Assembly: GCA_964016885.1 (NCBI GenBank)
Contig: OZ024742.1
Coordinates: forward strand, 130,138,001 to 130,202,000
Direction of reading: 5' to 3'
Length of the DNA stretch: 64,000 nt
Origin: Eledone cirrhosa
Taxonomy: Eukaryota
The translations under genes were made by a program, and so were the position numbers. Shown piece by piece: positions 12,901-53,229 of this stretch. Position 1 is the stretch's first letter; each line of letters opens with the position of its first letter. A model generated the notes under the pieces. It saw only the letters and a program-made list of their open reading frames with translations, was not told the origin of the DNA and did no database searches.

Positions 12901-15393
12901 GGGTGGTGTGGGGGAGAGACAGTGGTGGTAGGGTGTTGTGGGGGAGAGACAGTGGTGGTAGGGTGTAGTGGAAGAGAGACAGTGGTGGTAGGGTGTTGTG
13001 GAACAGAGACAGTGGTGGTAGGGTGGTGTGGTAGAGAGACAGTGGTGGTAGGGTGGTGGAAGAGACAGTGGTGGTAGGGTGGTGTGGGGGAGAGACAGTG
13101 GTGGTAGGGTGTTGTGGGGGAGAGACAGTGGTGGCAGGGTGTTGTGGAAGAGAGACAGTGGTGGAAGGGTGTAATGGAAGAGAGGCAGTGGTGGCAGGGT
13201 GTTGTGGAAGAGAGACAGTGGTGGCAGGGTGTTGTGGAAGAGAGAGTGGTGGTAGAGTGGTGTGGAAGAGAGACAGTGGTGGTAGGGTGTAATGGAAGAG
13301 AGACAGTGATGGTAGGGTGTTGTGGGGAAGAGACATTGGTGGTAGGGTGGTGTGGAAGAGAGACAGTGGTGGTAGGGTGTTGTGGGGAAGAGACATTGGT
13401 GGTAGGGTGGTGTGGAAGAGAGACAGTGGTGGTAGGGTGTTGTGGAAGAGAGACATTGGTGGTAGGGTGGTGTGGGAGAGAGACAGTGGTGGTAGGGTGT
13501 TGTGGAAGAGAGACAGTGGTGGTAGGGTGTTGTGGGGGAGAGACAGTGGTGGCAGGGTGGTGTGGGGGATAGACAGTGGTGGTAGGGTGTTGTGGAAGAG
13601 AGACAGTGGTGGCAGGGTGGTGTGGGGGAGAGACAGTGGTGGTAGGGTGTTGTGGAAGAGAGACAGTGGTGGCAGGGTGGTGTGGGGGAGAGACAGTGGT
13701 GGTAGGGTGTTGTGGAAGAGAGACATTGGTGGTAGGGTGGTGTGGAAGAGAGACAGTGGTGGTAGGGTGGTGTGGAAGAGAGACAGTGGTGGTAGGGTGT
13801 TGTGGAAGAGAGACAGTGGTGGTAGGGTGTTGTGGGGGAGAGACAGTGGTGGCAGGGTGGTGTGGGGGAGAGACAGTGGTGGTAGGGTGTTGTGGAAGAG
13901 AGACAGTGGTGGCAGGGTGGTGTGGGGGAGAGACAGTGGTGGTAGGGTGTTGTGGAAGAGAGACATTGGTGGTAGGGTGGTGTGGAAGAGAGACATTGGT
14001 GGTAGGGTGGTGTGGAAGAGAGACAGTGGTGGTAGGGTGGTGGAAGAGACAGTGGTGGTAGGGTGTTGTGGAAGAGAGACAGTGGTGGTAGGGTGTTGTG
14101 GGGGAGAGACAGTGGTGGCAGGGTGGTGTGGGGGATAGACAGTGGTGGTAGGGTGTTGTGGAAGAGAGACAGTGGTGGCAGGGTGGTGTGGGGGAGAGAC
14201 AGTGGTGGTAGGGTGTTGTGGAAGAGAGACAGTGGTGGCAGGGTGGTGTGGGGGAGAGACAGTGGTGGTAGGGTGTTGTGGAAGAGAGACATTGGTGGTA
14301 GGGTGGTGTGGAAGAGAGACAGTGGTGGTAGGGTGGTGTGGAAGAGAGACAGTGGTGGTAGGGTGTTGTGGAAGAGAGACAGTGGTGGTAGGGTGTTGTG
14401 GGGGAGAGACAGTGGTGGCAGGGTGGTGTGGGGGAGAGACAGTGGTGGTAGGGTGTTGTGGAAGAGAGACAGTGGTGGCAGGGTGGTGTGGGGGAGAGAC
14501 AGTGGTGGTAGGGTGTTGTGGAAGAGAGACGGTGGTGGTAGGGTGTTATGGGGAAGAGACAGTGGTGGCAGGGTGTTGTGGAAGAGAGACAGGGGTGGTA
14601 AGGTGTTGTGGAAGAGAGACAGTGGTGGTAGGGTAGTGTAGAAGAGAGACAGGGGTGGTAGGGTGGTGTGGAAGAGAGACAGTGGTGGTAGGGTGTTGTG
14701 GAGGAGAGACAGTGGTGGTAGGGTAGTGTAGAATAGAGACAGGGGTGGTAGGGTGGTGTGGAAGAGAGACAGTGGTGGTAGGGTGTTGTGGAAGAGAGAC
14801 ATTGGTGGTAGGGTGGTGTGGAAGAGAGACAGTGGTGGTAGGGTGTTGTGGAAGAGAGACAGTGGTGGTAGGGTGTTGTGGGGGAGAGACAGTGGTGGTA
14901 GGGTGTTGTAGAAGAGAGACAGTGGTGGTAGGGTGTTGTAGAAGAGAGACAGTGGTGGTAGGGTGTTGTGGGGGAGAGACAGTGGTGGCAGGGTGGTGTG
15001 ATGGAGGGACAGGGGTGGTAGGGTGGTGTGGGGGAGAGACAGTGGTGGTAGGGTGTTGTGGAAGAGAGACAGTGGTGGCAGGGTGGTGTGGGGGAGAGAC
15101 AATGGTAGTAGGGTGTTGTGGGGGAGAGACAGTGGTGGTAGAGTGTTGTGGAAGAGAGACAGTGGTGGCAGGGTGGTGTGGGGGAGAGACAATGGTAGTA
15201 GGGTGTTGTGGGGGAGAGACAGTGGTGGTAGAGTGTTGTGGAAGAGAGACAGTGGTGGCAGGGTGGTGTGGGGGAGAGACAGTGGTGGTAGGGTGTAATG
15301 GAAGAGAGACAGTGGAGGCAGGGTGGTGTGGAAGAGAGACAGTGGTGGCAGGGTGGTGTAGGAGACAGTGGTGGTTGGGTGGTGTGGAAGAGA
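9910..15393. repeat. 30-bp G-rich minisatellite, ~180 copies (GGTAGGGTGTTGTGGAAGAGAGACAGTGGT)
   Basis: A 30-nt period is visible in the aligned rows. The long ORFs are its translation. Confidence 0.97.
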
Positions 15394-15834
15394 GAAAATG
15401 AATAAGATAGAAAGGAACCATCGATGATAACAGAAAAGGTGATGGTAGGGTATATTAAATTCTTTTATATCCTCATTTATAATTATCACGATGGGAGAAG
15501 AGAAGCAGAGTTATTAGGATGATAATAGGGAGGATTGAGTACAGACTGTCCCAATGTCATCCTTCATTACAGAAGTTACATGGTGTTGTTAATAGAGGAG
15601 TGAATGGGTGTCAGAGACATGAGTGGCTCAAACAGATCTGATACCATCCATATTTACATGGGCAGTATCTTCATGTTTAGATTATTGCCATCATATTCCG
15701 ATGATTGTTTACATAGTTAGATGGTTATTTTTAATTTTTAATGGTTGTTTTCAAATTCAAATGTGTGTTGCCAAATTTTTAAGTTATTTTTATATTTAGA
15801 TGGCAGCTTTCATTTATATAATTATTTCATATTT

Positions 15835-20864: not shown

Positions 20865-21708
20865 ATAGAGAAGTATAGAAGATATAGAGAGGTATAGAAA
20901 ATATAGAGAAGATAGAGAGATATAGAGAGGTATAGAGAGGTATAGAGAGGTATAGAGAAGATAGAGAGGTATAGAAGATATAGAGAGGTATAGAGAAGAT
21001 AGAGAAGATAGAGAGATATAGAGAGGTATAGAGAAGATAGAGAGGTATAGAAGATATAGAGAGGTATAGAGAGGTATAGAGAAGATAGAGAGGTATAGAA
21101 GAGATATAGAGAGGTATAGAAGAGATATAGAGAGGTATAGAAGAGATATAGAGAGGTATAGAAAGGTAGAGAAGATAGAGAGGTAGAGAAGATAGAGAGG
21201 TATAGAAGAGATATAGAGAGGTATAGAGAAGTATAGAGAAGATAGAGAGGTATAGAAGAGATATAGAGAGGTATAGAAGAGATATAGAGAGGTATAGAAA
21301 AGTAGAGAAGATAGAGAGGTAGAGAAGATAGAGAGGTATAGAAGAGATATAGAGAGGTATAGAAGAGATATAGAGAGGTATAGAGAAGATAGAGAGGTAT
21401 AGAGAGGTATAGAAGAGATATAGAGAGGTATAGAAGAGATATAGAGAGGTATAGAAGGTATAGAGAGGTATAGAAGAGATATAGAGAGGTATAGAGAGGT
21501 ATAGAAGAGATATAGACATGTATAGAAGGTATAGAGAGGTATAGAAGGTATAGAGAGGTATAGAGAGGTATAGAAGAGATATAGAGAAGTATAGAGAGGT
21601 ATAGAAGAGGTATAGAGGTATAGAAGAGATATAGAGAGGCATAGAAGAGATATAGAGATGTATAGAAGGTATGGAGAGGTATAGAAGAGATATAGAGAGG
21701 TATAGAGG
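20865..21708. repeat. Purine-rich AGAGGTATAG/AGAGATATAG satellite, left half
   Basis: The same satellite resumes at 35870, so it is interrupted by the LTR composite. Confidence 0.93.
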
Positions 21709-21975
21709 TAAAGAAAAATAATATATCGTCCAGGTGTATGAACGATATCTCATCTCTCTAAGATTATTAATTAAAACAGAAGGGCTTTACGATAACAAGG
21801 CTAATCTTTTTATTAAATGATACATTTAATAAAACACAACATAATAATTACATTCACAGGACATACCCTGCAAGCTAAACGGCAATGGCTTAATTCTTAC
21901 ATTCAAGAAGAGATATGAAAATCTCTTGGTCAAAAACAGGCGTTTTCCCAAAGTACGTCCACGTGGCAGGACAAA
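21709..21975 (-). repeat. LTR type B, left copy (truncated and fused to viral sequence)
   Basis: 21731-21975 matches 35466-35709. Its start TAAAGAAAAATAAT resembles the PBS-adjacent LTR end at 35180 (TAAAGGAAAATAAT). Confidence 0.75.
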
Positions 21976-24900
21976 ATGACTCCTTGTGAAACATAAGCTT
22001 ATAAAACTATTGAAGATATATTTCACAAGGAGTCATTTTCTTTGAATCCTTGGTTGGAAGATTTCGAAATCATTTCACCGGATGATGGAGAGAAGATTGT
22101 ACCAGTGTCTGCTGACTATAATTTGAACTCCCCACTCCTATTAGATGAAATGGAGGCTATATATACCTTCTGCATAATTGGAAGATTGGAAGAGCGATTT
22201 CTTCATAGGCCGAATATTACATTCACTTCAAATCGTCTATACATCTCAAAAAATACAGTTGACTTCAAAAATCCCATTAACAATCATTCCTGGTTGTCTC
22301 AATTCATTTACAATCCCGATAAGTTTACAACCACTGAAACTCCTGCATACGTCATGAGAGAGACAAAAAAATGGAGTGAGATATGCGGAGGGCTTGTAAG
22401 CACTTACTTCACTCACATAACAGGAACTCTGTTCCCCTGTCATAATCCTCACAGATTTGCCTGGCTCGATTATCCTAAAACTATAAGACGAGACATAAAT
22501 CACTACTACACAATGTTTTTCGAAATATACAGAATAATACTGATTATGAACACTGCAAGTCATGATGAGCTTGTCAACTTAAAAAACAAACATCTATTCA
22601 AAATTGAAATCTCCAGCTATAATTCTGAGACAAAAATGTTTCACAGCTTATTCACCACAGATCTCTTAGGAATTGTGGATATTTTCCCGGGTTACTGCTT
22701 TTTCCAGTTTTATGGAGTTTTATTAGACCGTAACATGATATTAATGGCTAAAGATACTCTTTTGGCCAGATTCACCTCGACATGGTGTGCACTAAATTCT
22801 AAAGAATTTGGATCTCATGAGCATTACAGGAAATTGTGTGAATTTTATAAGTCAGGTGATGCATTAATCACAAATCACGGAAATGCAGCATATAAGGGTT
22901 TGAAATTGTGGGAATCGCACTGTGTAGATTCCAAGGAAAAATTGGCTTCTGAAGTTGTTCCAGAAATCCCACCATTTGGGAAGTTCAATGATCACCTAAT
23001 AAAATCAAGAGAGAAGCTGACCAGCTTATATGGACAACAATTTATGATTTTCTTTGAGCCTTTGACTTACGTGAAAGTCCCTAGATTTCTGGCATTTTTG
23101 AGAGGGATCTTTAGACACTGGGCACATCCTTAAATTGATTACAAGGCAGGCCTTGAAAAGCTACATCATTATGTATCAGTCGACAAACGAACTGATGTGT
23201 ACTATGCAGCATCTAAAGCCAGTGAATTAACCTTTATAGTACTAGAGGCTCAATTTAAAATAAAAAAGAAATGGTTCATAGATGAACAAAGACTGCCACC
23301 CAATCACATCCTCAGACTGTATATTACTGATCAGAAATGGCCCAATGCCAGAGTATTGAAACAGTTGGAAGGAACTTGGCACACACTACCTCTAGTCCCT
23401 TGTTTTGAAATCCCTGCCCAAGTGGACATGAGCACTCTATACTCTGATAAGAGCTTCAGCATGACCAGATCAGAGATCATAAACTACATGAAAATACATC
23501 CCCACAGACCGATACCAACCAAGAAAGTGCTGGCGGAAGCTCTTTCCAAGCCGCAGCTCCATGTTAAGGATTTTCTTGAAAAGATAGAAACCGAAGGTAT
23601 AGATGAAGATCATTTAATTATAGGTCTAAAACCGAAAGAGAGGGAACTCAAAATAGAAGGGAGATATTTCGCTCTAATGAGTTGGCAATTACGAACATAT
23701 TTTGTATTAACAGAGTATCTTATGAAGGAGTTTTACCTTCCTTTGTTTTCAGAGATTACTATGAGAGACGATCTGATTAAACTGATAGGAAAGATGCAGA
23801 ACGTTTCTGGAGGACAGGGATCTAGAAACTATGAAACCATTACCATAACCAATCAGTTTGATTATGAAAAGTGGAACAATAATCAGCGTTTGGAATCCAA
23901 TGGACCTGTATTTCGTGTTATGGGGCAATTTTGGGTTTATCCTACTCTGATTTACAAGACTCATTTGTTTCTCCAACAATCACTTATCTATTTCAATTAC
24001 AGAGGAGATAAGCTTACAACAGATGGGGTCAACATTTTGTGTAGAGAAAACCACTGTTGCTGGTCTGATCAAAAAGGTGGTTTGGAAGGAATTAGACAAA
24101 AGGGATGGACCATCCTTTGTATCTTGATGATTTACGTTGAAAGCAGAATAAGAAATACTCATTCTAGTGCCTTAGGAGCTGGAGACAATCAGATAGTTAA
24201 TAATCATTATAAGTTGGAGAAAGGTTTATCCAGAGAGGAGCGTCTTACAGAAATCAATCATATTATTCAAAATAATGAAGCCATTTGTACGGCAATCAGA
24301 TCTGGAGCAGAAAAATTGGGGCTGCCTATAAATGATGACGAGACAGTCCAGAGTTCTCAATACTTGGAATATGGGAAAACTATTATTCAGAGGAAAAATG
24401 ATTCCCTCCCCCAGAAAAGTATACTCAAGGATATCGTGTTTATCTAATGATCAAATTACGAGCTTAGGGAATCTAATGTCATCACTGTCGACTGGAATTA
24501 TAACTCTCTGTCAGCATTCAGACACCATAAAAGACCCATTGTCCTGGTTTGTGATCTACGCCCCATGGATAATTGTTTTACTTTCGATTCATCACCCTCT
24601 ATTGCGGGATTCCTTCTTTGGTTGGCGTTTGAAGCAACTCAAATCGATCAGCAAGTCAAGAAATTACATGAATAAAGCTGAGATTTATGAAGACTCAAAG
24701 ATGTTTGGTCAAAGTCTTAGATTTATGATTAGAGGAATTTTTTTGGCTCCCTCTTTGGGTGGAGTTTGTGGAATGGCCCCCTCCAGACTTTTAATACGTG
24801 GATTTCCCCATCCTGTGACAGAGTCATTACACTTTTGGAAAGTGATCCATGACAGTCACCCGGACCCTTTAATTAAAAAAATAGCCTTAGACTGAGGAAA

Positions 24901-26884
24901 CCCATCTATCGGTGGACCAGAAAGTCGAGATATCCTTCTTTTAATAGAACAGCCAACATCTCTCAATCTGAGAAGAGGGGTCAGTTCTGAAAGCATTTTG
25001 AGAAAGACAGTTCATAAAGGTCTTGTGGAGAATCTAGATAAAATTAAGAATGAGCTTTTTAGAGAAGCACTCATTGCAGACACAGCAGATGGGTCTTTTG
25101 TAACTAACTTTCTATCATCCATAAAACCGATTTTCCCAAAGTTTTTATCCGAGATGTTTAATGCTACTTTTCCGGGATTAATGACGTCTTTTGTTAAAAT
25201 GTATGAGAATTCTCGATCAATTAGACAACATTTCTCGTCTAAAGTGAGCAAAGAACTAGCTAGAAAATTCACCGATGCAGAGGGGGCCAGCCCCTTGAAT
25301 CTCAATAAATTTATAACACCCGGGAGCATATGGAACTGCTCCTCAATCTACGTACAAAGATTGAGAGAAAGATCATGGGGAGAAATTGTCGGAACAACAG
25401 TACCATTTCCAGGAGAAATGTTCAATGCACCTTCTGAGGCTACCAAAGATCATAAAGACTGCAACGAGCATGTCCCTGACACATTTATAACTGTGGTGAC
25501 CCCTCAAGGACTCGACACAGAATATGAAAAAGCAGGTAACAAGGCCGCCTATTTAGGATCCAAAACCACCGAGTGCACTGGAATTTATCAACCATGGGAA
25601 AAGACAACAGAAGTTTCTTTCCTCCAACGAGCTTCCAAGTTACGAGACACTATCAACTGGTTTGTTCACAAAGATTCTATGTTAGCCAAAGCGATTTTTG
25701 AGATCTTGAAATCCCTAACAGGAGGAAACTGGACTGAAAGCTTCCCATGTTTTGAGCTCAAACCCTTCTTTTCAGATGGCTCTGAATCATCCGAACTATA
25801 TCAGGTTGATAAGAACTCAACCTCACAGGGTACCTCCATCTTACCCTCCTACAGATCTTGAACAGGCTAAAATATTATTCGCTTACATGATGAAATCATG
25901 GATATCAGGAAAAAGCAAGGCCCATAAACTGTCGAACAAAGATCTGTGGGTATTTTCAGACTTTGACACCATTGAAGTTGTAAGTAATTTTTTGATCTTA
26001 AAGCAAATGTATGATTTACTGATAACTCAAAAGACAGGACCCTCTATTAAAAAGAAAATCAGAGAATTAAAACAATTGCATATAAGCATAGACAATCGAA
26101 AGCAAAGCACAGAATTGAATTCTTTTAAGAAAGCTATGTTTTCTTTGACCAGACTAAAACATAATTCTTATATCAAAAGAGTGGACAAAGAGATCAGATT
26201 TTCGGCTAAACAAATGCCTGTTCTTCCACCCCTGAATCCAGTATCCCTCAACAAGTGGGGTGAGGAAATAACATTCCCTATAGAGTCCAGTGATTTCATT
26301 TTCCACTCAGTCCTATGACATCGAGTAAAGGATTCACCAGTGCTGTAGAAAAGTATATAACCCCTCCGTATCTGGAACCAGATTGGCCCAATTAGCAACA
26401 GGATCTCATTATAAATTAAGATCAATTATGGTCAGTAAAAGCATCACATTCTCTGGAGCGATATTCGCCGCTGATGGTTCTGGAGGGGGGTGCGCTGCAG
26501 GCCTCAGACATCAGTCGGAGGCTTCTGTTGTTTTCAATAGCTTTCTCGATTTATCTAATACAACCCTTAAGGGTAGCAAGCTGCCACCTCCCATGGCGAT
26601 AGTGGACATGAGCACTCTATACTCTGATAAGAGCTTCAGCATGACCAGATCAGAGATCATAAACTACATGAAAAAACATCCCCACAGACCGATACCAACC
26701 AAGAAAGTGCTGGCGGAAGCTCTTTCCAAGCCGCAGCTCCATGTTAAGGATTTTCTTGAAAAGATAGAAACCGAAGGTATAGATGAAGATCATTTAATTA
26801 TAGGTCTAAAACATCTAAAGCCAGTGAATTAACCTTTATAGTACTAGAGGCTCAATTTAAAATAAAAAAGAAATGGTTCATAGA
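21976..26884 (+). pseudogene. L: Endogenous rhabdovirus-like (Mononegavirales) L protein gene: RdRp, partial PRNTase, connector and partial MTase; disrupted
   Basis: Collinear motifs matching VSV-like L as I recall it: ADYNLNSPL, FRHWAHP, IIGLKPKERELKIEGRYFALMSW, DYEKWNNNQR (motif A), GGLEGIRQKGWT (B), GDNQ (C), GTTVP, AYLGSKT (GxxT), PHRVPPSYP, QLATGSHYKLRSI and ADGSGG. In-frame stops at 23131, 24893 and 26316, frameshifts near 24378 and 26320-26350, and a deletion near 25756. Confidence 0.95.
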
Positions 26885-27094
26885 GGAACCAGAAGTTGTA
26901 AATTGGTGCAAGAAAAATTCCTGTAATATATAACAATGAAGCCAAAGCCTTACAAGGTACTCTTTACAAGTTGTTGAAACCGGTTTCAAAACGAACAATA
27001 TAGAGGTGAAATAGGTTAATGCATGCAAGCATTACACAAAAAATATACAACAAATGCAATAATTATACACATGCAGCAATAAATGCAAAAAGCA

Positions 27095-27350
27095 TTAAAA
27101 ATACGATAGGCATTGAAAATGCCATAGGCAGTAAGGTTACAAAATGCAATGAAAAATTATAATATGCCTTAAAAATACGATAGGCATTGAAAATGCCATA
27201 GGCAGTAAGGTTACAAAATGCAATGAAAAATTATAATATGCCTTAAAAATACGATAGGCATTGAAAATGCCATAGGCAGTAAGGTTACAAAATTCAATGA
27301 AAAATTATAATATGCCTTAAAAATACCAAAGGCAGTCAGGGTACAAAATG
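27095..27350. repeat. 74-bp tandem repeat, ~3.4 copies, between Gypsy pol and the viral insert
   Basis: TTAAAAATACGATAGGCATTGAAAATGCCATAGG... starts at 27095, 27169 and 27243, with a partial copy at 27317. Confidence 0.9.
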
Positions 27351-27408
27351 CAACAACAAATTCAATATACAGTAAAAATAGCTGCAAGAAAAAAGAATAC
27401 AATTCAGT

Positions 27409-30010
27409 TTATATTACTGCATAGCATACGGGGCCAATGCACCCTTCGCCCAGAACGGGTCGTAGTTCTGTGTGTTGATGTGGGAGGGGGAGAAGAAATA
27501 GGCGTATGTGGCAAAGAAAAGAAGGGGGCATTTGAGTTTCAAGTGTCATTGTGTCATTGTCCAGGTTTGCTAGTTTGAGACGATCAACGGAAACCGTTTC
27601 CCTGGAACCCCGAATGTCCAGTGTGAAATGTTTGTCTGTGTGAGCAAGCACACGATAGGGTCCAGAGTACGGCCGTTGAAGAGGGTGTCTCACGGCGTCG
27701 TCTCTAACGAACACATGTGTCCACAAGGCAATATCACTTGGGACGGCAGTTTTTACAGTTTGCTTCCTAGTGCCCATCGGTGGTAGCTCTTTGAAGTAAG
27801 AGTGGAGCCGGGACACGTAGGAAGCGGGGTCCTGCGAAGTGAGGTCAAAAGGGGCCAGCATTTGCCCCGGTAACGTCAGAGGAGTACCATAAACTAATTC
27901 GGCAGAGGAGAACCCAAGGTCCACCTTTACCGTCGACCGGATGCCTAGCAACACCACAGGCAGGTACTCGCTCCAACGTGATGAGTCCATGGAAGCCCTT
28001 GAGGAGGCTTTGAGCTGTCTGTGGAATCTTTCCACCATTCCGTTCGAGGCTGGGTGGTAAGCCGTGGTTCTTATTCGAGTAGCCCCCATGATTTGGGCTA
28101 ATTCTCGGAAGAGTTTAGACTCGAATTGACGACCACGATCCGTTGTGATGGTGGTTGGTACACCGAAGCGCGCGATCCATGAAGATACTAGAGTACGAGC
28201 TGTGGTTTCAGCGGTGATATCTGTTATAGGAACGGCTTCAAGCCAACGCGAAAAACGATCGACGATCGTCAAAAGACACGAAAAACCACGACTAACCGGC
28301 CACGGGCCGACGATGTCCACGTGAATGTGTTGAAATCTTGCATCCGGGCAGGTGAAGGTTCCGAGAGGAGCCTTAACATGTTTATGAATTTTCGCTTGTT
28401 GGCAAGCGACACAGGACCGACACGAAGCAGTAATGTCACGTCTCACATCCGGCCAGAAAAATCTGGCTGTTATGAGTTTTACTGAGGCTGATACTCCTGG
28501 GTGAGAAATACCATGTAAAGCGAGAAAAACAGTTCGTCGGTGTTCCACTGGGACTAGGGGCCGTGGTGAGTCCAATGAAACATCACGCAGTATTTGTCCA
28601 TCTGCCGTTGAGATCGGAATGTACTTCAATGTACAATTTTTAAACTCCGGCGATGCAACATCCAACAATTCGAGAGTGGGTTGAGCAGCCGCCATTCGAT
28701 GTAAATCTATCTCCTCGGAAGACGAAATCGATGCTATCGGGAGGCGAGACAGCGCGTCGGCCGCTGTATTCGAAGAACCCGGAATATGTTGGATGTTGCT
28801 CGTGAACTGTGATATGTAGTCCAGGTGTCGCGTCTCTCTGGGCGAGTATTTGTCTGCTTTAGTTCGAAGAGCAAACGTCAAGGGTTTATGATCAGTGAAA
28901 ATGGTGAACGTTCTACCTTCAAGTACATGAGCAAAGTGTTTCACTGATAAATAGATTGCTAATAGCTCCCTTCCGAAGGTGCTATAGCGGGTTTCGGCAG
29001 GCTTTAACTTTCTCGAAAAGAACTCGAGTGGTTGCAGTAACCCATCACACTTCTGTTGTAAAATTGCGCCTACCGCGCAATCGGAAGCCTCAACACAGAG
29101 CGACAGCCCGGCGTTGGGCTTGGGGTGGGCGAGTAAAGAAGCAGTCGCCAATGCTTTTTTTACTTTCTCAAAATCCGCCAGTTGCATTGGACTTAATGAA
29201 ATGTTCATATTCTTCCGTCGGCATTTTTTAAAAATTTCTGTCAACGAGGACAGTAAGCTGGAACAATTAGGCACGAATCGCCTATAAAAATTCACAAGGC
29301 CTAAGAATTGCCGTAATTGTCGAAGCGAACCTGGTGGAGGCAAATCCGAAATTGCCATAACTTTCTCCGGAAGTGGCCGAATACCATCTGCATCAATAAG
29401 ATGGCCCAAAAATGTTAGTGATGTTGAGCCGAAAATGCACTTAGAAGCATTAATACGAACACTGTATTTCTGTAAACGGCGAAATAGGGTATCCAGATGT
29501 TTGGAATGTTCGGGAGAAGAACTAGCAATCAGTACATCATCGATATAAGTGTAGACAAAATCGAGACCACGAGTGACATCATCCATGAATCGTTGGAAGG
29601 TACTTGCAGCATTTCTAAGTCCGAAAGGCATAGTGAGGAACTCGAATGCTCCGAAAGGAGTGGCAATAGCAGTCTTAGGAATATCGTCCTTGTTAACCGG
29701 GATTTGATTATAAGCGCGGACCAAATCAAGCTTCGAAAAGATCTCGCACCCCTGCAATGACGATGCGAAATCCTGCAAATGCGGGATTGGGTAACGGTCG
29801 GGCACAGTAATTGCGTTTAGACGCCGGTAATCGCCCGTCGGTCTCCAATCACCCGAATGTTTGCGTACCATATGCAGAGGGGACGCCCAAGGGCTTGTGG
29901 AACGCCGGATTATTCCCAAGTCCAGCATGTGGTCGAACTCGGACCGTGCAGCCCTTAACTTCTCAGTAGATAATCGTCGAGGACGTGAAACAACGGGTGG
30001 TCCTGTAGTC
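27409..30010 (-). CDS. pol: Ty3/Gypsy pol (RT, RNase H, integrase); open frame interrupted upstream by the hAT insertion
   Basis: [39 protein letters not shown], RNase H RELLAIY/TDHKPL, HHCC zinc finger (H..SHPG...CVACQ), integrase [16 protein letters not shown], and terminal [11 protein letters not shown] in an adjacent frame. Confidence 0.95.
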
Positions 30011-33000
30011 CAGTGGTCGCCAACCTTTCTAAAACCGAGGAACCCTCTAAATATTTTGAATTCTTCACGAAACCTATACAATACAAAACTTTTCAAAAAA
30101 AAATAATAAAGTATTTATTTATTTTAGTGTTTCATGCGTGTGTATGTAATCGAACACAATGAACTAGTGGCTTTTCTGCTGTTGCCCCTCATCAGTGAGT
30201 TTAGAAAATCGAGGGTCAACACTAGTTAATGCCAGTCTCATACACTCGTCAATTGCTGACAGTTTATTCATCTTCTTTGTGCTGATTTCTACCAACTGCG
30301 AAAACCCTTTTTCGCACAAGTAGCTAGATGGGAATAAAGTCAAATATTTCAATGCAAGTTGGCTGATTTCATTAAACTACCCAATCAAGAATAAGTCGAT
30401 CCATAGTTCTTTCTTTCTGCTTTCGAATATCACTTTCAGGTCTTCGTTTGAATTCAAATCCATCAACTGATGTAAGCATTGTGCAGGTAGTAAATTTTTA
30501 CAATTTCCAGCGTCATTTTCTGACATTAACTGCTCGATTTCGGTGAACGGGTTTTTATCCATAAATTTCCGCTAACAATATTTTTTTCCATCAAGTCAAA
30601 ATAATCTGAAAAACTCGTGGAAAGCACATTTAAATGAGAAAGAATAATCTTCTTTAGATTGTTGGAGTCAAAATCTTCTCTCTTTTTAAGCTCTATTTCA
30701 AGGTTTGAAAGTAATGAGTAATTGTCCGATTCAATTCTTTGTATAAAGATGTTTAATTTTGATTGAAAATATGTAATAAAATTGATTGAAGTAAAAAATC
30801 TGCATTGTTACCCTGAAACACTTATTTAGTTTGTTCAGTTCACCAAAAATGTCTACTAAATAGGTTTCTAATACACTTGCTCTTTCATCATTCTGTTTTT
30901 TTTTAGAAAAACTATTATTTCTTCTCTCAGTTCAAAATCTCTCTTCATAGCATCCCCAAAAGACAGCCAACACACATCATTGTTCAATAACAATCTATTA
31001 TAATTACTTCCAGAAGATTCACAAATAGATTCAAACATTCTAGAATTTTTTGCTCTTGCATGGATCAAATTGATAATTTTGACAATCTTTCAGCTGGTCA
31101 TTTAATATTTGAGCATCTCAGTCTTTGAATTTTTTTGAACACAAAACCTCTCGATGAATCATACAATGATTTGAAATACAATTTGGGGTCTGTTCTTTAA
31201 TTTTTGCATTCAAACCAGAATTTTTACCAGTCATTGCAGCTGCTCCATCTGTTGTTATTGAAGCCAACTTGCTCCAAGATACACCATTTTTTAAAAAATA
31301 CTCTTCAATTTTATTGAATATATCTTGACCTTTAGTTGTGATGTCTAATGCCAGACAAAACAAATACTCTTCTACTAATTCTTTTTTATCAAGGTCTACA
31401 AACCGTACATAGCAAATTAATTGATCCTTGTTATTAATATCCGTAGTTTCGTCCACTTGCAGACCAAAACATGTGCTTTTCTTTAGTGCGCAGTTAGTAT
31501 CTTATTTTCTATATCAGAAGAAATATCAATTATCCTTCTTTTTACGGTATTTGCTGACAATGGTAACTGGCTTAATTTTTCTTTGTCCTTAATACTGCAG
31601 CTTTCAAAAAGATTCTCTGTAGCAATTTTTATACTTGGCAGAATTAACTGTTCTCCTAATGTAAATGGTTTCTTGTTTTTACCAACCAAATGTGAAATTT
31701 CAAAAGATGTTCTTGTTAAAGCTTTATTTCTATCTGACTTTTTACAAAACAAGTCATACATATTAGCTTGTGATTTTTTGATGTTGTTTGATGTAAAGTA
31801 TTCCAGTGACTTGTTTTTATCATTGGTGTGATTAGTATCAAGGTGTCTTTTAAGTTTTGCAGGATTTAAACAGCTATTTGATAGAACTTTTGAACATAGC
31901 AAATACATGGGCTGATCTGGTGTATCTTTTTTAGTGTCAGCTTTTTGAAATCCATATCTAACATAATCATCACACCACTGTCTAACCTTACTGCTGGTAT
32001 CTAACTTCAGCTTCTTTGCAGTAGACATCATATCAATGTTATTTATCTACAGTTAACATTTTTAATATGACATTAATAAACAAGAGAAATTAAGTTTTTT
32101 TTTATTACAAAAAGTACTTAAATTAACTTTAATTTTAGATATTTGGAAAAACTTAACTAGTTAAAAAAAAATTTTAATTTTAAAAAATTGAAATTTCTCC
32201 ATTTTAGGATGGCAAACATATTATTTAAAGTCTTATAATAATATTAAAATATTAGGGGTTACTGAAAAAGGTGCAAATTTATAAACAACTAGAAGAAATT
32301 TTTTTCAGAGTCCAGCACTTCCTGCATATACTACTTTAGGGTCGTATTAAATATTATTGGTAATATAAATATATTTAAATATCCGCCATACTAAAAGGTG
32401 CAAAAAATGAAAATCAGCTGTTAGTGTAGAAAATGTGACGATGGTATTGGAAATTAATTCAGATATCTTCTATCTATTTTGACTCAAAGTTAGATATAAT
32501 ATAAGAAGGCTTTAGGCTGCGTTAAACATATTAGATTGGAACAAATAAAGTTTAGTCAAATGTTTGTGAACATATATATTTATTATATAAAGTAATTTCT
32601 CAATTGTGAATGCAGATGTCATCAAATGAATACATAATTGTGTGGCAAAGTTTATAGTGTATGCATGGAATACAAAATTACCTTTGTTAGTAGTCGAAAC
32701 TTTACAGGCGTTATATTTTCTGTGCAAAGTACAACAGAATGTAACGTATTCTTATTTAGAATTGTCTGTGGAACTGGATGCATGTTGAAAACGACTAGTA
32801 AGCGAGTTCACTCTGAGGAAACTTTAGGCGACTTTAAAGCTTTTGTGAGGACAGCAGATTAAAACGTGTTCTCTATTGAAAACATTCTACTGAACTTACG
32901 TTGTGAGAACAGCGAACTGATCCTGTCTCTCGGCTGAAAGACCTCGCTGAACTGAAGTTTTCAGTTTAAAGTTATGCTGTCATCGACCAACATTTACTTG

Positions 33001-33335
33001 TTCGTGATTGGTCAATTTCTAAGTTCAATTAGTAGTAGTCAAATTCTCGGAATTCAGAAAACTATGTCTTTCCAAGAATTGATGTGAAATTGAAAGTATT
33101 CAATTTCCACGAATCTCAGAACAGTGTTTTTCTGCTAATTCAAGTGAGAAACTGAAAGTAGTGTTTTCCACGAATTGGAGTGGAGAACCTGTGTACAATA
33201 GTACTCGTTCATTTATACATTTGGCATTTTCTTTGCACCTTTTTCAGAAAACCCAAAATATTAATGGTAATGTAAATATTTATTTTTTTAAGGAACCCGG
33301 AGTTTGTTTTACGGAACCCATGTTGGCGACCACTG
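30011..33335 (-). mobile_element. hAT (Buster/Charlie-type) DNA transposon with both termini, nested in Gypsy pol
   Basis: 14-bp perfect TIRs CAGTGGTCGCCAAC (30011-30024 / 33322-33335) and an 8-bp TSD CTGTAGTC (30003-30010 / 33336-33343) with central TA. Confidence 0.97.
30164..32031 (-). pseudogene. hAT/Buster transposase (ZBED5/SCAND3-like), frameshifted
   Basis: YVRYGF...CSKVLSNSCLNPAKLKRHL, KKPFTLGEQLILP, LSANTVKRRI, DETTD, TTDGAAAMTG, HCMIHRE and FPSSYLCEKGFS, spread across broken ORFs. Confidence 0.92.
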
Positions 33336-34800
33336 CTGTAGTCGATATGAAGTGTTCAATCGCATGTTCCGGGCTAGTAATTCGTAACTTTCCCTGCGTC
33401 AACTGAGGGAATGAATGTAACAGGCTTTGATACTGGTTGCCCACTTCAGCCAAGAAAAAGGAAGGGCTGACAGTGGCGACCTCCGGCTCTGAACCCTCGA
33501 AAAAAAGGCCTGTTTCAGCATCAAAAAGGCGTTGTCTGCGGATGTCCACCGACAAGGAAAAATGGTGTAGAAAATCCGCTCCCAAAATGGCGTATGGCAA
33601 GTCGGCGATAGTAAACGTCCACTTCAATTCACGACGCAAATTTTTTAACCGAAGAGGAAGCAAAACTTGCCCGTACGTTCGAATGGCCGTGTGGTTGACT
33701 GCTCGTTAATTTATATTTGATTCAGATGGGTTTTTTTTTTTAAATAACTGACTGGCCAAATACTCAGCGACGCGCCAGTATCGACAAGGAAACATTTTTT
33801 CGACCGCAGGTCGTATACGAAAAGATGGCGGTTCGGTCGATTTTCCCAGAGTTCACTAACCGCCCCTAGTGGCTCTGCTTTGCATTTTCCGATCTCTTGT
33901 AATTACAGGGCGTGCGACAACGTTGTGCCCTACTGCCGAAGTTAGCATGATACCAACAAAACGAAGAATTATTGTTGTCTGCGTTGTAGTGCTAGCGATG
34001 AATATAAGACGGCGGCGAACGGTACTCGTAGCGGTTTCAAGGAATAGCAGACGGAGGCGAACGGTACTCGTAGCGGTTTCAAGGAATAGCAGACGGAGGC
34101 GAACGGTACCTCAAACGTTGAGAAGCCTCTCTGTGTTGTACGGTCAAATCCTCTCCACTTTTTGGGTGAGCGCTTCGATCATCTCCAACAGTTTGCTGTC
34201 GGCCACAGAAGAAGAAGCCACACAAGGATTATGCCGACTGCTGTTAGAGTCCACCTCTAGTATTCTATCCGCGGATGCGGCAAGTTGATCTAACGATTCC
34301 CTCTCCAAATTATTGACCAAGACCATCTGCGCACTTGGCGGTAAACGAGAGAAAAATAGTTGTTTGAGGAATGGGGTGTCCATCCCCTGGGAGTCGCTCA
34401 ATTCCCGCAGATGTCGCAAATAGGAGCTTGGCGTCCTGTCACCCATTTGCGCATCATCTAACAATTCCCGAAAACGACTTTCCGCTGACTTGGTATTCCT
34501 CCGAATAATTTCCCCTTTCAACGAGCCATTAGTCTGCGGCTAAATTGGTTACCACATCCTTCACGGAATATGCCAACGACACAGGCAAGCCACTAACTAG
34601 TACCTTCAGTTTATGCTGTTCTTTGGTTTTGGTTAAATCAAAATAGCATTCAAGCTGCAAAAACCATAACTTGATGTCGCCTGCGAAGGACGGCAAATGA
34701 TGAGATTCATGATTGCCGAAGAATCTCCCAGGACGAACTATGTCTTTGAAGCAGCCACTCGACCAAAAGTCCACACTGGAACTCCGAAATCCGTTCACGC
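33336..34800 (-). pseudogene. gag: Ty3/Gypsy gag and protease (frameshifted)
   Basis: LPSFAGDIKLWFLQLECYF, MGDRTPSSYLRHL, Cys/His knuckle CWYHANFGSRAQRCRTPC (~33900-33958), protease FLVDTGASLS (~33762-33792) and ILGADFL. Rejoins pol as HFISTT|[11 protein letters not shown] once the hAT is removed. Confidence 0.9.
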
Positions 34801-35149
34801 GAATTCAATCGAAATCAGTAGAAGAGTCCAAGGAATAAAAAAAAAAAAAAATGCTTTTTGGTGAAGACGCCGTCACGTGGCACGATGCAGCCAATCAGAT
34901 TGCTTGGATTGAAGGAGATACACTGTGCGCGGGAAAACCGCACAAGGAAGAAGACACGCAGAATAGCGGGAAAATGTCGGCCATTTAAAAAATTATCATG
35001 AGGAAATGACGGTGAAAATTCAGGAAAGAAAAAAATGTTTACAGTGTGAACAGCGAACAGAGTTTAGAAATCATCTAATTTTTTTGGGGGGGAAAGGTTT
35101 GGATTTAAACCAAAGAGAAAAGAAAAAAAATTTTTTTCTTTTAGTGTCC

Positions 35150-35178
35150 GCGTATTGGAATCACGTCGTCGGTCACCA
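35150..35178 (-). promoter_or_regulatory. Primer-binding site, tRNA-Trp type
   Basis: Minus strand TGGTGACCGACGACGTGATTCC lies one base from the LTR end. The plus strand ATCACGTCGTCGGTCACCA resembles the animal tRNA-Trp 3' end ATCACGTCGGGGTCACCA. Confidence 0.8.
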
Positions 35179-35179
35179 A

Positions 35180-35467
35180 TAAAGGAAAATAATGTTTGTC
35201 GGTGAATGGACAATTCATCGTTTCTCTTTGTATGAATAAATGACTCCAGAAAGGGGGTGAACAATCAAAAATTAACGATCCTTTATTAAGAAAAAGCGTA
35301 ATATATTCTCCGGTGCAGGAATAAGCGAATCCTTTATCGTCTGTTCGTGTTCGCGGTTCGTGAGAAAGATCCTGGTGAGTGACCGGATGTATCTTGCCCC
35401 GCGCTCTCTGAAAAATCATTCAGGGGAGGCAACTGCTAGTTGCTAAGCGACCATCTCAGTCACTACA
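35180..35467 (-). repeat. LTR type A (5' LTR of the gag-pol element; no partner copy in the window)
   Basis: The minus strand begins TGTAGTGACTG and ends ...CCTTTA directly before the PBS. Confidence 0.7.
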
Positions 35468-35869
35468 GGTGTATGAACGATATCTCATCTCTCTAAGATT
35501 ATTAATTAAAACAGAAGGGCTTTACGATAACAAGGCTAATCTTTTTATTAAATGATACATTTAATAAAACACAACATAATAATTACATTCACAGGACATA
35601 CCTGCAAGCTAAACGGCAATGGCTTAATTCTTACATTCAAGAAGAGATATGAAAATCTCTTGGTCAAAAACAGGCGTTTTCACAAAGTACGTCCACGTGG
35701 CAGGACAAAGGCGACTGGAATGAAAAACCAAATCTCTTGAGTTTTACATTGGCGTCTCTTCTTTTAGAGAACGCCGAGATAAGGGAAGTGATTCGCTATT
35801 TTTTGGTGTTACCCACAGGTGGCGACACTGCGTTGCTATAGTCAACACACTATCGCCATAGTTACTACA
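35466..35869 (-). repeat. LTR type B, right copy
   Basis: The minus strand begins TGTAGTAACT. 35466-35709 is duplicated at 21731-21975, and the copy is followed by GAGG and satellite. Confidence 0.75.
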
Positions 35870-37575
35870 GAGGTATAGAAAAGTATAGAAGAGATATAGA
35901 GAGGTATAGAAGAGATATAGAGAGGTATAGAAGAGGTATAGAGAGGTATAGAAGAGGTATAGAGAGGTATAGAGATGTATAGAAGAGATATAGAGAGGTA
36001 TAGAAGAGATATAGAGAGGTATAGAAGAAACAGAGAGGTATAGAAGATATAGAGAGGTATAGAAGAGATATAAAAGGTATAGAAGAGATATAGAGGAGTA
36101 TAGAAGAGATATAGAGAAGTATAGAGAGGTATAGAAGAGATATAGAGAGGTATAGAAGGTTTAGAGAGGTATAGAAGGTATAGAGAGGTATAGAAGAGAT
36201 ATAGAGAGGTATAGAAGAGATATAGAGAGGTATAGAAGATATATAGAGAGGTATAAAAGAGATATAGAGAGGTATAGAAGAGATATAGAGAGGTATAGAA
36301 GAGATATAGAGGTATAGAGAGGTATAGAAGAGATATAGAGGTATAGAAAAGTATAGAAGAGATATAGAGAGGTATAGAAGAGATAGAGTGGTATAGGAGA
36401 TATAGAGAGGGGATATACAAATGAAGGGAGCAAATATATAGTAAAAGAGAGAATGGGGATAAGAGAGGAGAGGGGGCATAGAATATAGATAAATGAAAGA
36501 GAGAGGGTGTGAGAAAGATAAAGTAAGAGAAAGTGTAGGAGAGATAGGGGAAGAGTGTAGAATATAGATGGGAAAAGATAAAGTAAGAGAAAGAGTAAAA
36601 GAAAAATAGAGAGAGGCGAGATAAAGAAATTAAAGGGAGCAGAGGGGGGAGAGACAGAGAGAGAGAGAGAGACAGAGAGAGTGAGAGACAGGGAGAGAGA
36701 GAGGGGGAGACAGACAGAGAGACAGACAGACAGGCAGACAGAGAGAGAGCGAGAGATGGAGACAGACAGAGAGAGAGAGAGATGCAGAAATGGGGGGGGG
36801 AGAAGAAAGCAACAAAAAAAGTAAAGAAAAATAGAATGAGGTAGTGGTGCAAGTGAAAGAGGGGGGGGGGGGGCAAAAAAGCTGAAAAGAGAGTGGGTTG
36901 TAGAAATGGAAAGGAACAGAATGTAGATAGAGTGAGAGGGGGAGAGTCCAAAGGAAGATAAGAGTGGGAGACAAAGGGGAGTGAAATAGGAAAAAAAAAC
37001 AAAGAGAGATGCAGAGAGAGAGGAAGTAGAAGAGAGAGAGAGAGAGGGGGAGAGAGAGAACGAGGAAGTAGAAGAGAGATGTAGAGAGAGATGACGGGGG
37101 TAGGGTGAGAGAAAGAGAGGGTAGAAAAGAGATGCAGAGAGAGAGGGGAGAGAGAGAGAGAGGGGGAGAGGTAGACAGCATAAAAATTGAGTTAAATAGA
37201 CAATAGAGAAAATAAAGAAAAAATGATGTGAAGAGTGAAGAAAGGAAGAGAGAGGGAGCAAGGGAGATATATGATGAGAGGAAAGGAGAGGTAGAGGAAA
37301 GGAGAGATAGAGGAAAGGAGAGGTAGAGGAAAGGAGAGGTAGAGGAAAGGAGAAGTAGAGGAAAGGAGAGGTAGAGGAAAGGAGGGGTAGAGGAAAGGAG
37401 AGATAGAGGAAAGGAGAGGTAGAGGAAAGGAGGGGTAGAGGAAAGGAGGGGTAGCGGAAAGGAGGGATAGAGGAAAGGAGAGGTAGAGGAAAGGAGGGGT
37501 AGAGGGATAGAGGAAACGAGAGGTAGAGGAAGGGAGGGGTAGAGGAAAAGAGGGATAGAGGAAAGAGAAAAGAAA
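35870..37575. repeat. Purine-rich satellite (right half), then GA-rich low-complexity sequence
   Basis: AGAGGTATAG units, then (GA)n and GGAAAGGAGAGGTAGA units. Confidence 0.93.
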
Positions 37576-43477: not shown

Positions 43478-44755
43478 CAGGGTGTGGACGATATTTGTTC
43501 GCAATTTTCAACTGCTAATTTTATGCAAATTTTTTTTACTTCCGTTGTAACTCTTGTCTTCATAAAAACAGTGACTATATTTCCATTATTTATTTTCAGA
43601 ATAATTGATTATGAATAATTTTGAACCTCCAAATTTGTGGAAGAGACACAGAGTTCTTCTTGGAATCCAAGCCAGGAGGACAAATAAGGAAATTTCAGAC
43701 TTTCTCAGTGTCAGCAGGAGAATGGTGGAAAAGGTCAGAAAGGAATTGAAAGATTCAGGATTCGACTACGAAGCAACATCAGAGAGGAAAACACATGATC
43801 GACGATCTGACGCCTTCAGAACGCCCGACTTCGTCGCTGAAGTTCAGGATATCATCAATAATGAACCTAGCAAGTCGATGCATGCCATTGCAAGGGAGAA
43901 AGGCGTGGATGAAAAGCTCATTAGGCTGGTGGTACATGAAGACATTCGCTACGTTTCATACAAGATGAAGAAAGGACAATTTCTGTCAAAGGCGATGCAA
44001 GAAAAGCGACTGAAGCACGCAAAGGAGCTGATCAACAAGTTGAAACACCCACTAGAGTCAGACATGCTGTGGTTTTTCTCCGACGAGAAAAACTTCTGCC
44101 AAGACCAAAAGATCAACTCCCAGAACAACAGGTGGCTCACTGTCTCATCCAAAGATGTTCCCAGAGTCATGCGGACAAAGTTTCCAGCAACAACATTGGT
44201 CTTAGGTGTCGTCAGCAGTCAAGGTGACGTCATACCACTTCACTTCTTCCCTGAGGGCCTCAAGCTGAACACCGATGGCTACATCCACGTTCTGAGCGAG
44301 GTAGTAAAGCCCAGGTAGCTGTAGGTAGGCTGTACGTGTAGCAGCAAGACTCAGCGCCCTGCATACCAGCCGAAAGACCCAAGCCTGGCTGTCAGAGAAC
44401 TTCGTCGACCACACTTCACTTGACATCTGGCCTCCCAGCTCGCCTGACTGCAACCCCCTCGACTTCTTTGTGTGGGGCGCAGTGGAACGAGACACCAACA
44501 GATCTAGCTGCAATACGAAAGACGATCTGAAGGGCACGATCACAAGTTGGGGGACAGTGACGAAGACCTGTAGCCGGTTCCGAGGCCGACTTGAGGCCGT
44601 CATCAAAACCAATGGCGGGTTTATCGAGTGAGATCGAAAGAACAAGTCATGAAGACAAATTGACCCAAGTTTGATAAATATATCTTAAAAAATAAAAGTA
44701 GTGTGTTATTTTTTCCTAGACAGTAATCTTGCAAACAAATATCGTCCGCACCCTG
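43478..44755 (+). mobile_element. Tc1/mariner superfamily, maT (DD37D) transposon with a defective transposase
   Basis: 27-bp TIRs CAGGGTG(T/C)GGACGATATTTGTT(C/T)GCAA flanked by TA. WFFSDEKNF, then QQD-(37 aa counted)-D in WPPSSPDCNPLDFFVWG. Stops and a frameshift near 44316-44341. Confidence 0.93.
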
Positions 44756-52981: not shown

Positions 52982-53229
52982 CTGTCATCATTTATCTTAA
53001 TGAGATTGTCAGCTGTCAGTGGATTTTGTTCAATTGCTCGAGAAAATTCCTTTGTGTTCCTCCCAAGTTCTCTAGCTATTTTGTGGAAGTTGGTCACTTC
53101 TGCTTGTGAGGAAGGGTAGAATGAGTGTCTTTCCTTCTGCAGTCGTTGCTTCTGTTCTAGTGCAACTTTATATCTCTCTTTGACATCATGTTGTTGGTCA
53201 ACAGCTTCTTTCATCACATCTTCAACAAT
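52982..53229 (-). CDS. Internal coding exon (248 bp) of a host gene, tentatively dynein regulatory complex subunit 9 / IQCG-like
   Basis: Acceptor cttttttttttttag|ATT and donor GACAG|gtttgt, with an open frame IVEDVMKEAVDQQHDVKERY...ELGRNTKEFSRAIEQNPLTADNLIKINDDR. The end resembles the NPLT.DNL.K...DR(QF) segment I recall from IQCG/DRC9; this is unverified. Confidence 0.6.

Follow-up and report, generated by a model that had tools for sequence, protein, structure and literature searches.

A rhabdovirus L gene fragment in host DNA

The analyzed stretch of the Eledone cirrhosa genome, 64,000 nucleotides long and referred to here as the window, contains a broken rhabdovirus L gene on the plus strand at positions 21976 to 26600, as defined with Pfam, the PDB and tblastn using four natural L proteins. 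Six plus-strand reading-frame pieces between 21997 and 26829 matched the Mononegavirales L families PF00946, PF14318, PF21080 and PF14314 in Pfam. The insert corresponds to residues ~1 to 1215 and ~1443 to 1712 of the 2109 residues of VSV L, with the 3' end missing. Its reading frame is broken by in-frame stops, at 23131 and at 24893; it shifts near 24380 and again somewhere from 26280 to 26350, and ~690 nt are deleted near 25745. The closest solved structure in the PDB search was VSV L, and VSV and rabies L ranked ahead of other families by more than 300 bits. The named top matches were rhabdoviruses, the closest having ~52 to 53% protein identity, a figure to be read with the thin sampling of known viruses of this host group in mind. 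In a quick tree the insert formed a long branch that was placed in no genus. With homology spanning the L domains, the insert is identified from its sequence as a non-retroviral EVE from the Rhabdoviridae.

The region from 26601 to 26884 was considered as further L but was found to consist of two back-copied L fragments. Fragment 1 (26601 to 26812, plus strand) is a copy of 23421 to 23632, and fragment 2 (26812 to 26884, plus strand) is a copy of 23210 to 23282. The L insert is host chromosomal DNA, as indicated by the 379-Mb contig, the host flanks, and the stops and frame changes. The junction between LTR and L was bridged without differences by contigs of runs X1 and X2, which may derive from the assembly's own sample and are therefore not independent; a contig over 26600/26601 was left out of this count, as it extended just 30 letters past the junction in one direction. 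In the RAD runs of other samples, all from one study, a few reads fell on L in three of three (depth at most 0.6 per bin). Since L lacks a recognition site for the enzyme apparently used, these runs (X4 to X6) are unfit to genotype the insert. A search of sequencing runs for L listed no RNA run carrying it, a result with no bearing on expression.

The L insert replaces part of a Ty3/gypsy element

The insert is flanked by a minus-strand gypsy element. On its left is the remaining 3' LTR of family A (21709 to 21975, minus strand), which is 267 bp long with an AATAAA at 21809, the first 160 bp of the ~427-bp LTR being gone. This remnant had 40 scored matches in the genome (94 to 100%), with paired LTRs in full elements. 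It differs from the 5' LTR at 2 positions in 245 bp which, with the 1 mismatch in 212 of back-copied fragment 1, makes the L insert look young. On its right are gypsy pol and the 3' UTR (26885 to 30010, minus strand), assigned by Pfam and by sliding identity against 11 copies, with RT, RNase H and integrase matched in Pfam within 27412 to 30114 on the minus strand. The integrase region is 92 to 96% like family B, and the 3' UTR is up to 96 to 98% like family A.

A hAT-type DNA transposon (30011 to 33335, minus strand), recognized by its 14-bp terminal inverted repeats, 8-bp target duplication and DUF4371 match, interrupts the gypsy reading frame and contributes seven minus-strand AATAAA signals. 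It was missing from all nine family-A copies spanning the site. The broken gag/protease region (33336 to 34815, minus strand) matched family copies at the nucleotide level, gave no Pfam match and is labeled by position only. A PBS-like TGG motif (35178 to 35161, minus strand) stands next to the LTR in family copies as well, and this primer-binding site (35161 to 35178) would be of the tRNA-Trp type; a tRNA gene search of the window returned none. An internally deleted LTR of family B (35180 to 35468, minus strand) is nested at the inner end of the family-A 5' LTR (35466 to 35869, minus strand), the outer end of which is intact. The 4-bp target duplication (21705 to 21708 and 35870 to 35873) lies inside a minisatellite and is hence weak evidence; such a duplication was present in six of the eight family copies shown. 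The element is a dead Ty3/gypsy chimera that combines two gypsy subfamilies and is interrupted by the hAT transposon.

The viral insert stands in place of the polypurine tract and of 160 bp of 3' LTR sequence. As expected for captured RNA, the replaced part lies between two same-family LTRs with intact outer ends. The first-strand layout, in which both LTRs, the primer site and the polypurine tract are kept, was not found here and among the sister loci was found only at L067.

The element lies in an intron of DRC9/IQCG

The host exon at 52982 to 53229 (minus strand) has AG/GT ends and a protein match to DRC9/IQCG, a cilium and sperm-tail gene. The flanking exons were located at window-equivalent positions 80292 to 80161 and −51193 to −51324, giving a downstream intron of 104,173 bp. 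The whole gypsy element sits in this intron of a complete minus-strand gene, downstream of the exon. The sequence-only reading had placed L on the plus strand and pol, the PBS and the host exon on the minus strand, which Pfam, the TGG motif and the exon ends confirmed, and had asked whether the locus lay in an intron of the exon's gene, as it does. It had further proposed that any read-through transcript, intronic or LTR driven, would be complementary to L mRNA. The intronic geometry holds, since with DRC9 on the minus strand and L on the plus strand the full host pre-mRNA is complementary to L mRNA. The LTR-driven part is doubtful because nine AATAAA signals lie between the 5' LTR and L.

The gypsy element is in sense to DRC9, which is opposite to a flamenco-type locus. 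Coding transposon pieces in the intron, found with seven query proteins and mostly LINEs, were split into nine on the plus and six on the minus strand (p = 0.61). The intron is therefore not cluster-like, having no strand bias and not forming a one-directional, LTR-dense array. The orientation of a single insert is a 1-in-2 event and is uninformative alone.

Junctions of the L insert

A perfect 19-bp inverted repeat (21973 to 21991 and 22021 to 22039), probably a fold-back scar, was observed exactly at the LTR/L junction. The next longest arm in the insert was 9 bp, and the longest arms in 30 simulated sequences were 8 to 12 bp. If the outer arm was self-templated, this would be possible only on a strand growing from right to left. 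Short overlaps were present at both switch points, again as expected for captured RNA: the LTR and L overlap by 3 nt on the left, and back-copied fragment 2 is joined to the gypsy 3' UTR by an imperfect overlap (10 of 13 positions) on the right. The same 3' UTR flank was found at this position in 10 of the 12 family copies examined.

The motif DYxLNxPL lies ~41 codons from the left border. Among 120 L relatives with a complete N-terminus, 106 have this motif, at a median residue of 44 (quartiles 38 to 49), and this agreement places the start of the insert at the L start. AACA at 21990 was considered as the L gene start and dropped, since sister loci carry another gene-start motif; that motif, shared by L067, L099 and L103, is not present at the border of this insert.

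Sister rhabdovirus loci in the genome

The genome contains 15 rhabdovirus loci representing 13 events, including five tandem N units on C28 and the twin loci L097/L100 and L099/L129. The only methyltransferase match in the genome is that of the window. A genome search for a glycoprotein gave no match, but neither did its controls, and this result is no sign of absence. At least 8 of the 13 events lie in gypsy elements. The LTRs at L097, L099, L100 and L102 to L104 were missed by the family A/B screen and were identified by motifs and repeats, and families C, D and E were oriented by LTR-end, tract and primer-site motifs rather than by pol frames. L106 was dropped as a sense capture, its L piece being >1 kb beyond the nearby element. 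The eight gypsy-borne events comprised six antisense and two sense, an excess that was not significant (p = 0.29). Direct joining to LTR sequence was seen in five of six antisense events versus neither of the two sense events (p = 0.008 at an assumed chance rate of 28%, in a post hoc comparison).

At L098, the 5' LTR is cut and antisense N ends at the N gene end, fused to an LTR T-run, while the tract and 3' LTR are intact and a 4-bp target duplication is present. At L129, the A-run after P is joined to a T-run of the element, with a 48-nt back-jump. The L099/L129 insert crosses the N-P gene junction. L067, a sense locus, conforms to the textbook layout of first-strand capture described in PMC5131818. 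In several events, among them L098 and L067, the hybrid is bordered by integrase-type ends and 4-bp duplications. The A-run is nine long at all three N gene ends; it was dropped as proof of a poly(A) tail, since one such run precedes a next gene start. Together the loci are a record of repeated germ-line infection of a mollusc by a deep, unsampled rhabdovirus lineage.

Capture route and alternative explanations

We favor, at a probability of roughly 0.55, the reading that this broken antisense L was captured by the now dead element from viral mRNA during second (plus) strand synthesis, so that its orientation is a by-product and the locus a passenger rather than an evolved immune locus. Plus-strand synthesis would have stalled ~50 nt short of the polypurine tract and switched onto L RNA via the imperfect homology. 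The two short L fragments would have been copied first, followed by a 4.6-kb run to the mRNA 5' end, after which the strand would have folded back by 19 nt and rejoined the LTR through the 3-nt overlap, and the product would have been integrated. Because a positive-sense RNA is copied while the element's sense strand is being made, such an insert would always be antisense. The second-strand step is favored since first-strand capture needs the tract and rebuilds both LTRs from the 3' end, whereas this element has lost the tract and is cut in its 3' LTR only. Capture of mRNA at this step is also supported by the border at the L start, by a fold-back that is far above chance and fits a right-to-left strand, by the L098 and L129 junctions at gene ends or an A-run with T-runs, and by the contrast in LTR joining between antisense and sense events. 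VSV cDNA found in cells was complementary to mRNA, according to PMC4038843. Against mRNA capture, the N-P span of L099/L129 needs a genome, antigenome or read-through mRNA. The case is weakened further by the ambiguous 9-A runs, the gene-start motif missing at the window's border, the nonsignificant antisense excess (6 of 8), the motif-based orientation of families C, D and E and the target duplication in a minisatellite.

The sequence-only reading had taken the orientation to imply that the genomic (negative) strand was the template, which our data do not support, given the border at the L start, the fold-back and the antisense sisters that end at gene ends fused to T-runs. The same antisense product would result from such a route: first-strand (minus) synthesis would leave the LTR for the viral genomic strand, proceed rightward through L, jump back twice and resume on element RNA, with a second molecule supplying the intact 5' LTR. 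First-strand switching is the documented route of mRNA capture in PMC5131818, and the gene junction crossed at L099/L129 is what a genome template would give. The switch would however have to land at the L start by chance, with two extra switches for the fold-back and an intermolecular second jump, on a genomic RNA that in rhabdoviruses is coated by nucleoprotein, and we regard this route as very improbable. Less improbable, though still unlikely, is a patch made after integration, in which microhomology-mediated end joining used viral cDNA to close a DNA break beside the 3' LTR, with the orientation a coin toss. Fold-backs and short templated inserts are typical of end-joining repair too, the overlaps of 1 to 3 nt would fit, and the locus underwent other later changes (the nested family-B LTR, the A/B recombination and the hAT insertion). 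Against this, capture in the particle is indicated by the concentration of viral events in gypsy elements and by the integrase-type ends and duplications that several of them show.

We consider it rather unlikely that the locus works as an antisense piRNA source, with 5'U RNAs against L mRNA arising from DRC9 pre-mRNA or from an LTR transcript and conferring heritable protection against the cognate rhabdovirus. That reading is kept alive by the molluscan precedent described below and by a likely germ-line host gene: the insert lies antisense in the intron, and expression of Iqcg during mouse spermatogenesis is high (PMC4029791). The genome has four Piwi-domain loci (a count that does not distinguish Argonaute from PIWI), piRNAs of both soma and germ line and clusters rich in gypsy elements occur in molluscs (PMC6128900), the insert is young, and a few reads of other samples fell on L. 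Against it are the missing strand bias, the poly(A) signals upstream of L, the sense orientation of the gypsy element to the host gene, and the fact that capture mechanics alone can explain the orientation. Protection is described as requiring near identity, ~96% (PMC7522710), yet against the C27 copy (75% identity) only 35 of 1,085 28-mers had three or fewer mismatches. The passenger reading is further supported by the 9-to-6 transposon split, the nine AATAAA signals and the lack of any known virus closer than 52 to 53% protein identity. On the passenger reading, DRC9 transcription, likely in the testis, would incidentally produce antisense L RNA, most of which would be degraded as spliced intron.

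Comparison with known systems

The sequence-only reading had drawn on EVEs of mosquito piRNA clusters. In Aedes, non-retroviral EVEs lie beside Ty3/gypsy elements in piRNA clusters (10.1101/127498, PMC6797480, PMC7522710, 10.1101/2022.08.22.504762, PMC8048955). The Eledone locus resembles them as rhabdovirus sequence joined to Ty3/gypsy and as a composite of nonadjacent viral pieces, and antisense reading through host-gene transcription is conceivable. The analogy is inexact: as reported in 10.1101/127498, Aedes EVEs are enriched in the orientation of the nearest Ty3/gypsy element, with the cluster read antisense to both. They occupy one-directional clusters that are transcribed by read-through of an upstream gene, whereas Eledone L is opposite to its gypsy element, intronic, in a region free of strand bias, and lacks a known cognate virus.

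Antisense piRNAs from an EVE have been published for a mollusc before: in the dog whelk, a probable rhabdovirus N EVE gave only negative-strand, 5'U RNAs of 26 to 30 nt (PMC6085071). Both cases are rhabdovirus-derived host sequences in molluscs, and the dog-whelk one demonstrates that sequences of this kind are able to give rise to such RNAs. In that account small RNAs were measured, the genomic context was unknown and an antiviral effect was not demonstrated, whereas here the context is resolved and antisense small RNAs are a prediction. LTR-mediated retroposition as described in PMC5131818 shares the replacement of an internal element part by captured RNA, short switch overlaps, multiple switches and retained outer ends. 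Its first-strand model places the insert between intact LTRs, whereas the antisense insert and cut LTR found here point to the second-strand step. The LCMV-IAP recombinant cDNA and VSV cDNA in mammalian cells, summarized in PMC4038843, likewise represent negative-strand virus RNA copied by a retroelement enzyme; those cases are somatic and experimental, and the present ones are germ-line fossils over several gypsy families.

Implications

In the usual scheme, a template switch during first-strand synthesis leaves the viral gene reading in the same direction as the element. This genome exhibits both outcomes, sense and antisense, with readable junctions, and the antisense ones resemble a second route at the plus-strand step. 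Our search, covering mainly open-access literature, returned no publication on such elements in cephalopods and none on second-strand antisense capture of viral RNA. A speculative and improbable extension is that second-strand capture, often primed on the poly(A) end, builds antisense cassettes, some of them amplified, which together with the intronic L would make up an antiviral small-RNA memory that is dispersed, independent of clusters and directed at an unsampled rhabdovirus lineage. In such a cassette the reversed viral gene would directly follow an LTR promoter and be followed by a poly(A) site, its orientation being set by capture chemistry rather than by piRNA-cluster selection. If the favored reading is correct, antisense viral cassettes form mechanically and need no piRNA cluster to acquire the right orientation, and neither immunity nor a genomic template could be deduced from orientation by itself.

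A rhabdovirus polymerase fragment within a young gypsy element

Six plus-strand reading-frame pieces at 21997-26829 of the window matched the Mononegavirales L families of Pfam. Comparison with solved structures in the PDB gave VSV L as the closest relative and rabies L as the next, with other families far behind, and in tblastn the insert corresponded to VSV residues ~1-1215 and ~1443-1712 of 2109. The reading frame changes twice, is interrupted by stops at 23131 and 24893, and has lost ~690 nt to a deletion; the final 284 bp of the insert are two back-copied L fragments. The top identity, in the polymerase core, was 52% (best of 206 protein hits), and a quick tree of 50 rows placed the sequence on a long branch outside all supported groups. 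On sequence grounds, we assign the insert to the rhabdovirus-derived EVEs and its source to an unsampled rhabdovirus lineage.

The 267 bp flanking L on the left belong to an LTR family for which at least 40 copies were counted in the genome, and complete elements of this carrier family are ~5.9 kb long. The window element, a minus-strand mixture of two Ty3/gypsy subfamilies, comprises a 5' LTR whose outer end is intact, a nested LTR of the sister family, a primer-binding site, gag, a hAT transposon (3.3 kb, flanked by an 8-bp target duplication), pol, and the 3' UTR. Compared with full elements, L occupies the place of 51 nt that include the polypurine tract, together with the first 160 bp of the 3' LTR. 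Because the LTR copies differ at only 2/245 positions and the longer internal duplicate of the insert at 1/212, the locus is considered young. The element is unable to move by itself. The LTR/L junction was bridged, with zero differences, by contigs assembled from two sequencing runs. A few reads fell on L in three RAD runs, all from other samples, a weak hint that other animals carry the insert.

Template strand of the capture

The sequence-only reading took the antisense orientation of L to mean that the genomic (negative) strand had been the template. This holds for a first-strand template switch alone, and three junction features oppose it here. The DYxLNxPL motif lies ~41 codons inside the insert border, and in 106 of 120 L relatives with a full N terminus it lies at residue 44 (quartiles, 38 to 49); since these distances match, the border was assigned to the start of L. 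A perfect inverted repeat of 19 bp coincides with the LTR/L junction; in 30 simulations the longest arm was 8 to 12 bp. Only a strand that grew from right to left, and so on positive-sense RNA, could have templated the outer arm of this repeat on itself. Capture during first-strand synthesis is also disfavored by the loss of the polypurine tract, without which the intact 5' LTR could not have been restored from the same molecule. The right insert junction is ~50 nt ahead of the tract, in the part of the element in which, during LTR replication, the growing plus strand runs into the primed strand. As described for LTR-mediated RNA capture (PMC6797480, PMC8048955, PMC12810003), the window insert appears to work similarly, but it departs from the first-strand layout outlined for LTR-mediated retroposition (PMC5131818). 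Against second-strand priming, the gene-start motif of this rhabdovirus lineage is absent at the insert border.

Rhabdovirus loci elsewhere in the genome

Family and protein searches of the genome, whose counts are lower bounds, gave at least 15 rhabdovirus loci, all 15 of which were inspected; merging two pairs with common junctions left 13 events. Eight lie inside gypsy-type elements, six antisense (window, L098, L097/L100, L099/L129, L102, and L104) and two sense (L067 and L103), an antisense excess that is not significant (6/8 events, p=0.29). Orientation in three carrier families was set by motifs rather than pol frames, which counts against the second-strand reading. Five of the six antisense inserts, but neither of the two sense inserts, abut LTR sequence with nothing in between; in most cases this is a 5' LTR truncated after 28 to 180 nt.

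The sense insert L067 (C2:336.02 Mb) is a capture of N from its gene start that retains both LTRs, the primer site, and the tract, the layout of the first-strand model as given in PMC5131818. L103 (C5:61.19 Mb) is likewise a sense capture of N. In the antisense locus L098 (G000:C2:55886117-55888321), N stands in place of gag-pol of a family-B gypsy, the 5' LTR is broken at its own T-run immediately before the poly(A) signal, and N stops at its gene end, at the site identical in L103, joined to the LTR T-run; a 4-bp target duplication brackets the hybrid. Of all the loci, it offers the clearest candidate case of an antisense cassette driven by an LTR. L099 (C2:47.05 Mb) and L129 (C219:63.1-66.7 kb), one capture in two places that are 96% alike, supply the gene-end and gene-start signals of this rhabdovirus lineage, and L129 may be an unplaced haplotype. 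In L129, the terminal A-run after P is joined to an element T-run, and the insert also shows a back-jump of 48 nt. Junctions like those of L098 and L129 are what would be expected if second-strand DNA had primed on viral mRNA. However, L099/L129 covers N, the N-P junction, and P, and a 9-A run is present at an internal viral gene junction too, both of which count against such priming.

L097 (C4:337.14 Mb) and L100 (C5:74.85 Mb), 92% alike, represent one N capture, and the L097 frame runs for 393 codons without a stop despite lying antisense to the LTR. L104/L131 (G000:C28:117475400-117485000) is a tandem array of five 1.8-kb units. In each unit, most of the U3-R of an LTR is replaced by 700 bp of antisense N; the array terminates in one normal LTR and is interrupted by a later family-B insertion. 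Five events lack any LTR element in the surrounding ~4.5 kb: the L and N remnants L105 (C23:16.22 Mb), L106 (C3:37.50 Mb), L101 (C1:314.57 Mb), and L130 (C25:7.91 Mb), and L036 (C27:16994652-16997230), a scrambled mosaic of L fragments, 74 to 77% alike to the window L, that is fused to the 3' end of a LINE and lies between long inverted repeats.

Host gene

The best relative of the host exon, protein P0002, is DRC9/IQCG, with an E value of 1e-66 to PDB DRC9. Residues 13-56, 56-137, and 137-180 of P0002 each mapped to one exon; the three exons follow one another on the minus strand and have canonical splice sites. The intron separating the last two of them, 104,173 bp long, contains the gypsy element. 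Seven of nine DRC9 matches span residues 13-398 on a single strand of contig C3, and the remaining two are a weaker paralogue on C5. The gene (G000:C3:129890066-130218292) takes at least 328 kb for ~400 codons. Host exon, intron, and element are on the minus strand and L is on the plus strand, so that a full DRC9 pre-mRNA would by gene structure be complementary to L mRNA; the antisense geometry first noted is therefore borne out, and the insert is intronic with its flanking exons mapped. Mouse Iqcg is described as highly expressed in spermatogenesis (PMC4029791). Judged from gene structure, an antisense DRC9 pre-mRNA across L would probably be made in testis. The element (21709-35869), sense to DRC9, adds 11 AATAAA signals to the intron and could shorten DRC9 transcripts.

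Elsewhere in the window, two tandem arrays give rise to long spurious open frames, one with a 54-bp repeat (55363-64000; 160 copies, 96% matches) and the other with a 30-bp repeat (9917-15395; 183 copies). The frame at 43605-44315 may be that of a Tc1/mariner-like transposase.

Small RNAs and the meaning of the insert

It had also been proposed that the insert may be a source of antiviral piRNA or siRNA. The intron geometry, with L antisense to the DRC9 transcription unit, and four Piwi-domain loci in the genome favor this. So do the piRNAs reported from both somatic and germ-line tissue of molluscs (PMC6128900) and, in the dog whelk, a probable EVE of rhabdovirus N origin whose small RNAs are reported to be solely negative-strand, 5'U, and 26-30 nt long (PMC6085071); from the latter account, the idea of EVE-derived antisense piRNAs in a mollusc is already known. 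The gypsy element, however, is sense to the host gene, an LTR transcript would meet nine AATAAA signals ahead of L and one within it, and the coding transposon pieces of the intron are split 9 to 6 by strand. Targeting is described as needing near identity, ~96% in the single proven case (PMC7522710), and at 75% identity just 35 of 1085 28-mers have three or fewer mismatches. Mosquito EVEs are reported to be enriched in the orientation of the nearest Ty3/gypsy element, within clusters transcribed antisense to both (10.1101/127498) by read-through from upstream genes (10.1101/2022.08.22.504762). The window L differs from this mosquito model in being opposite to its gypsy carrier; unlike mosquito piRNA-cluster EVEs, the window locus did not have the character of a cluster. 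We consider it doubtful that the locus yields measurable antisense piRNAs, and quite unlikely that it is an antisense piRNA source with a real antiviral function.

A search of main texts, mostly open access, found no paper on cephalopod rhabdovirus EVEs, although genome-wide EVE tables may list these loci, and, in such texts, no account of viral RNA being captured antisense at the second-strand step. Overall, the antisense observation is confirmed and its interpretation partly supported. The value of the locus lies less in its single orientation than in a set of junctions pointing to a second way in which virus sequence is captured, together with a clear small-RNA test.
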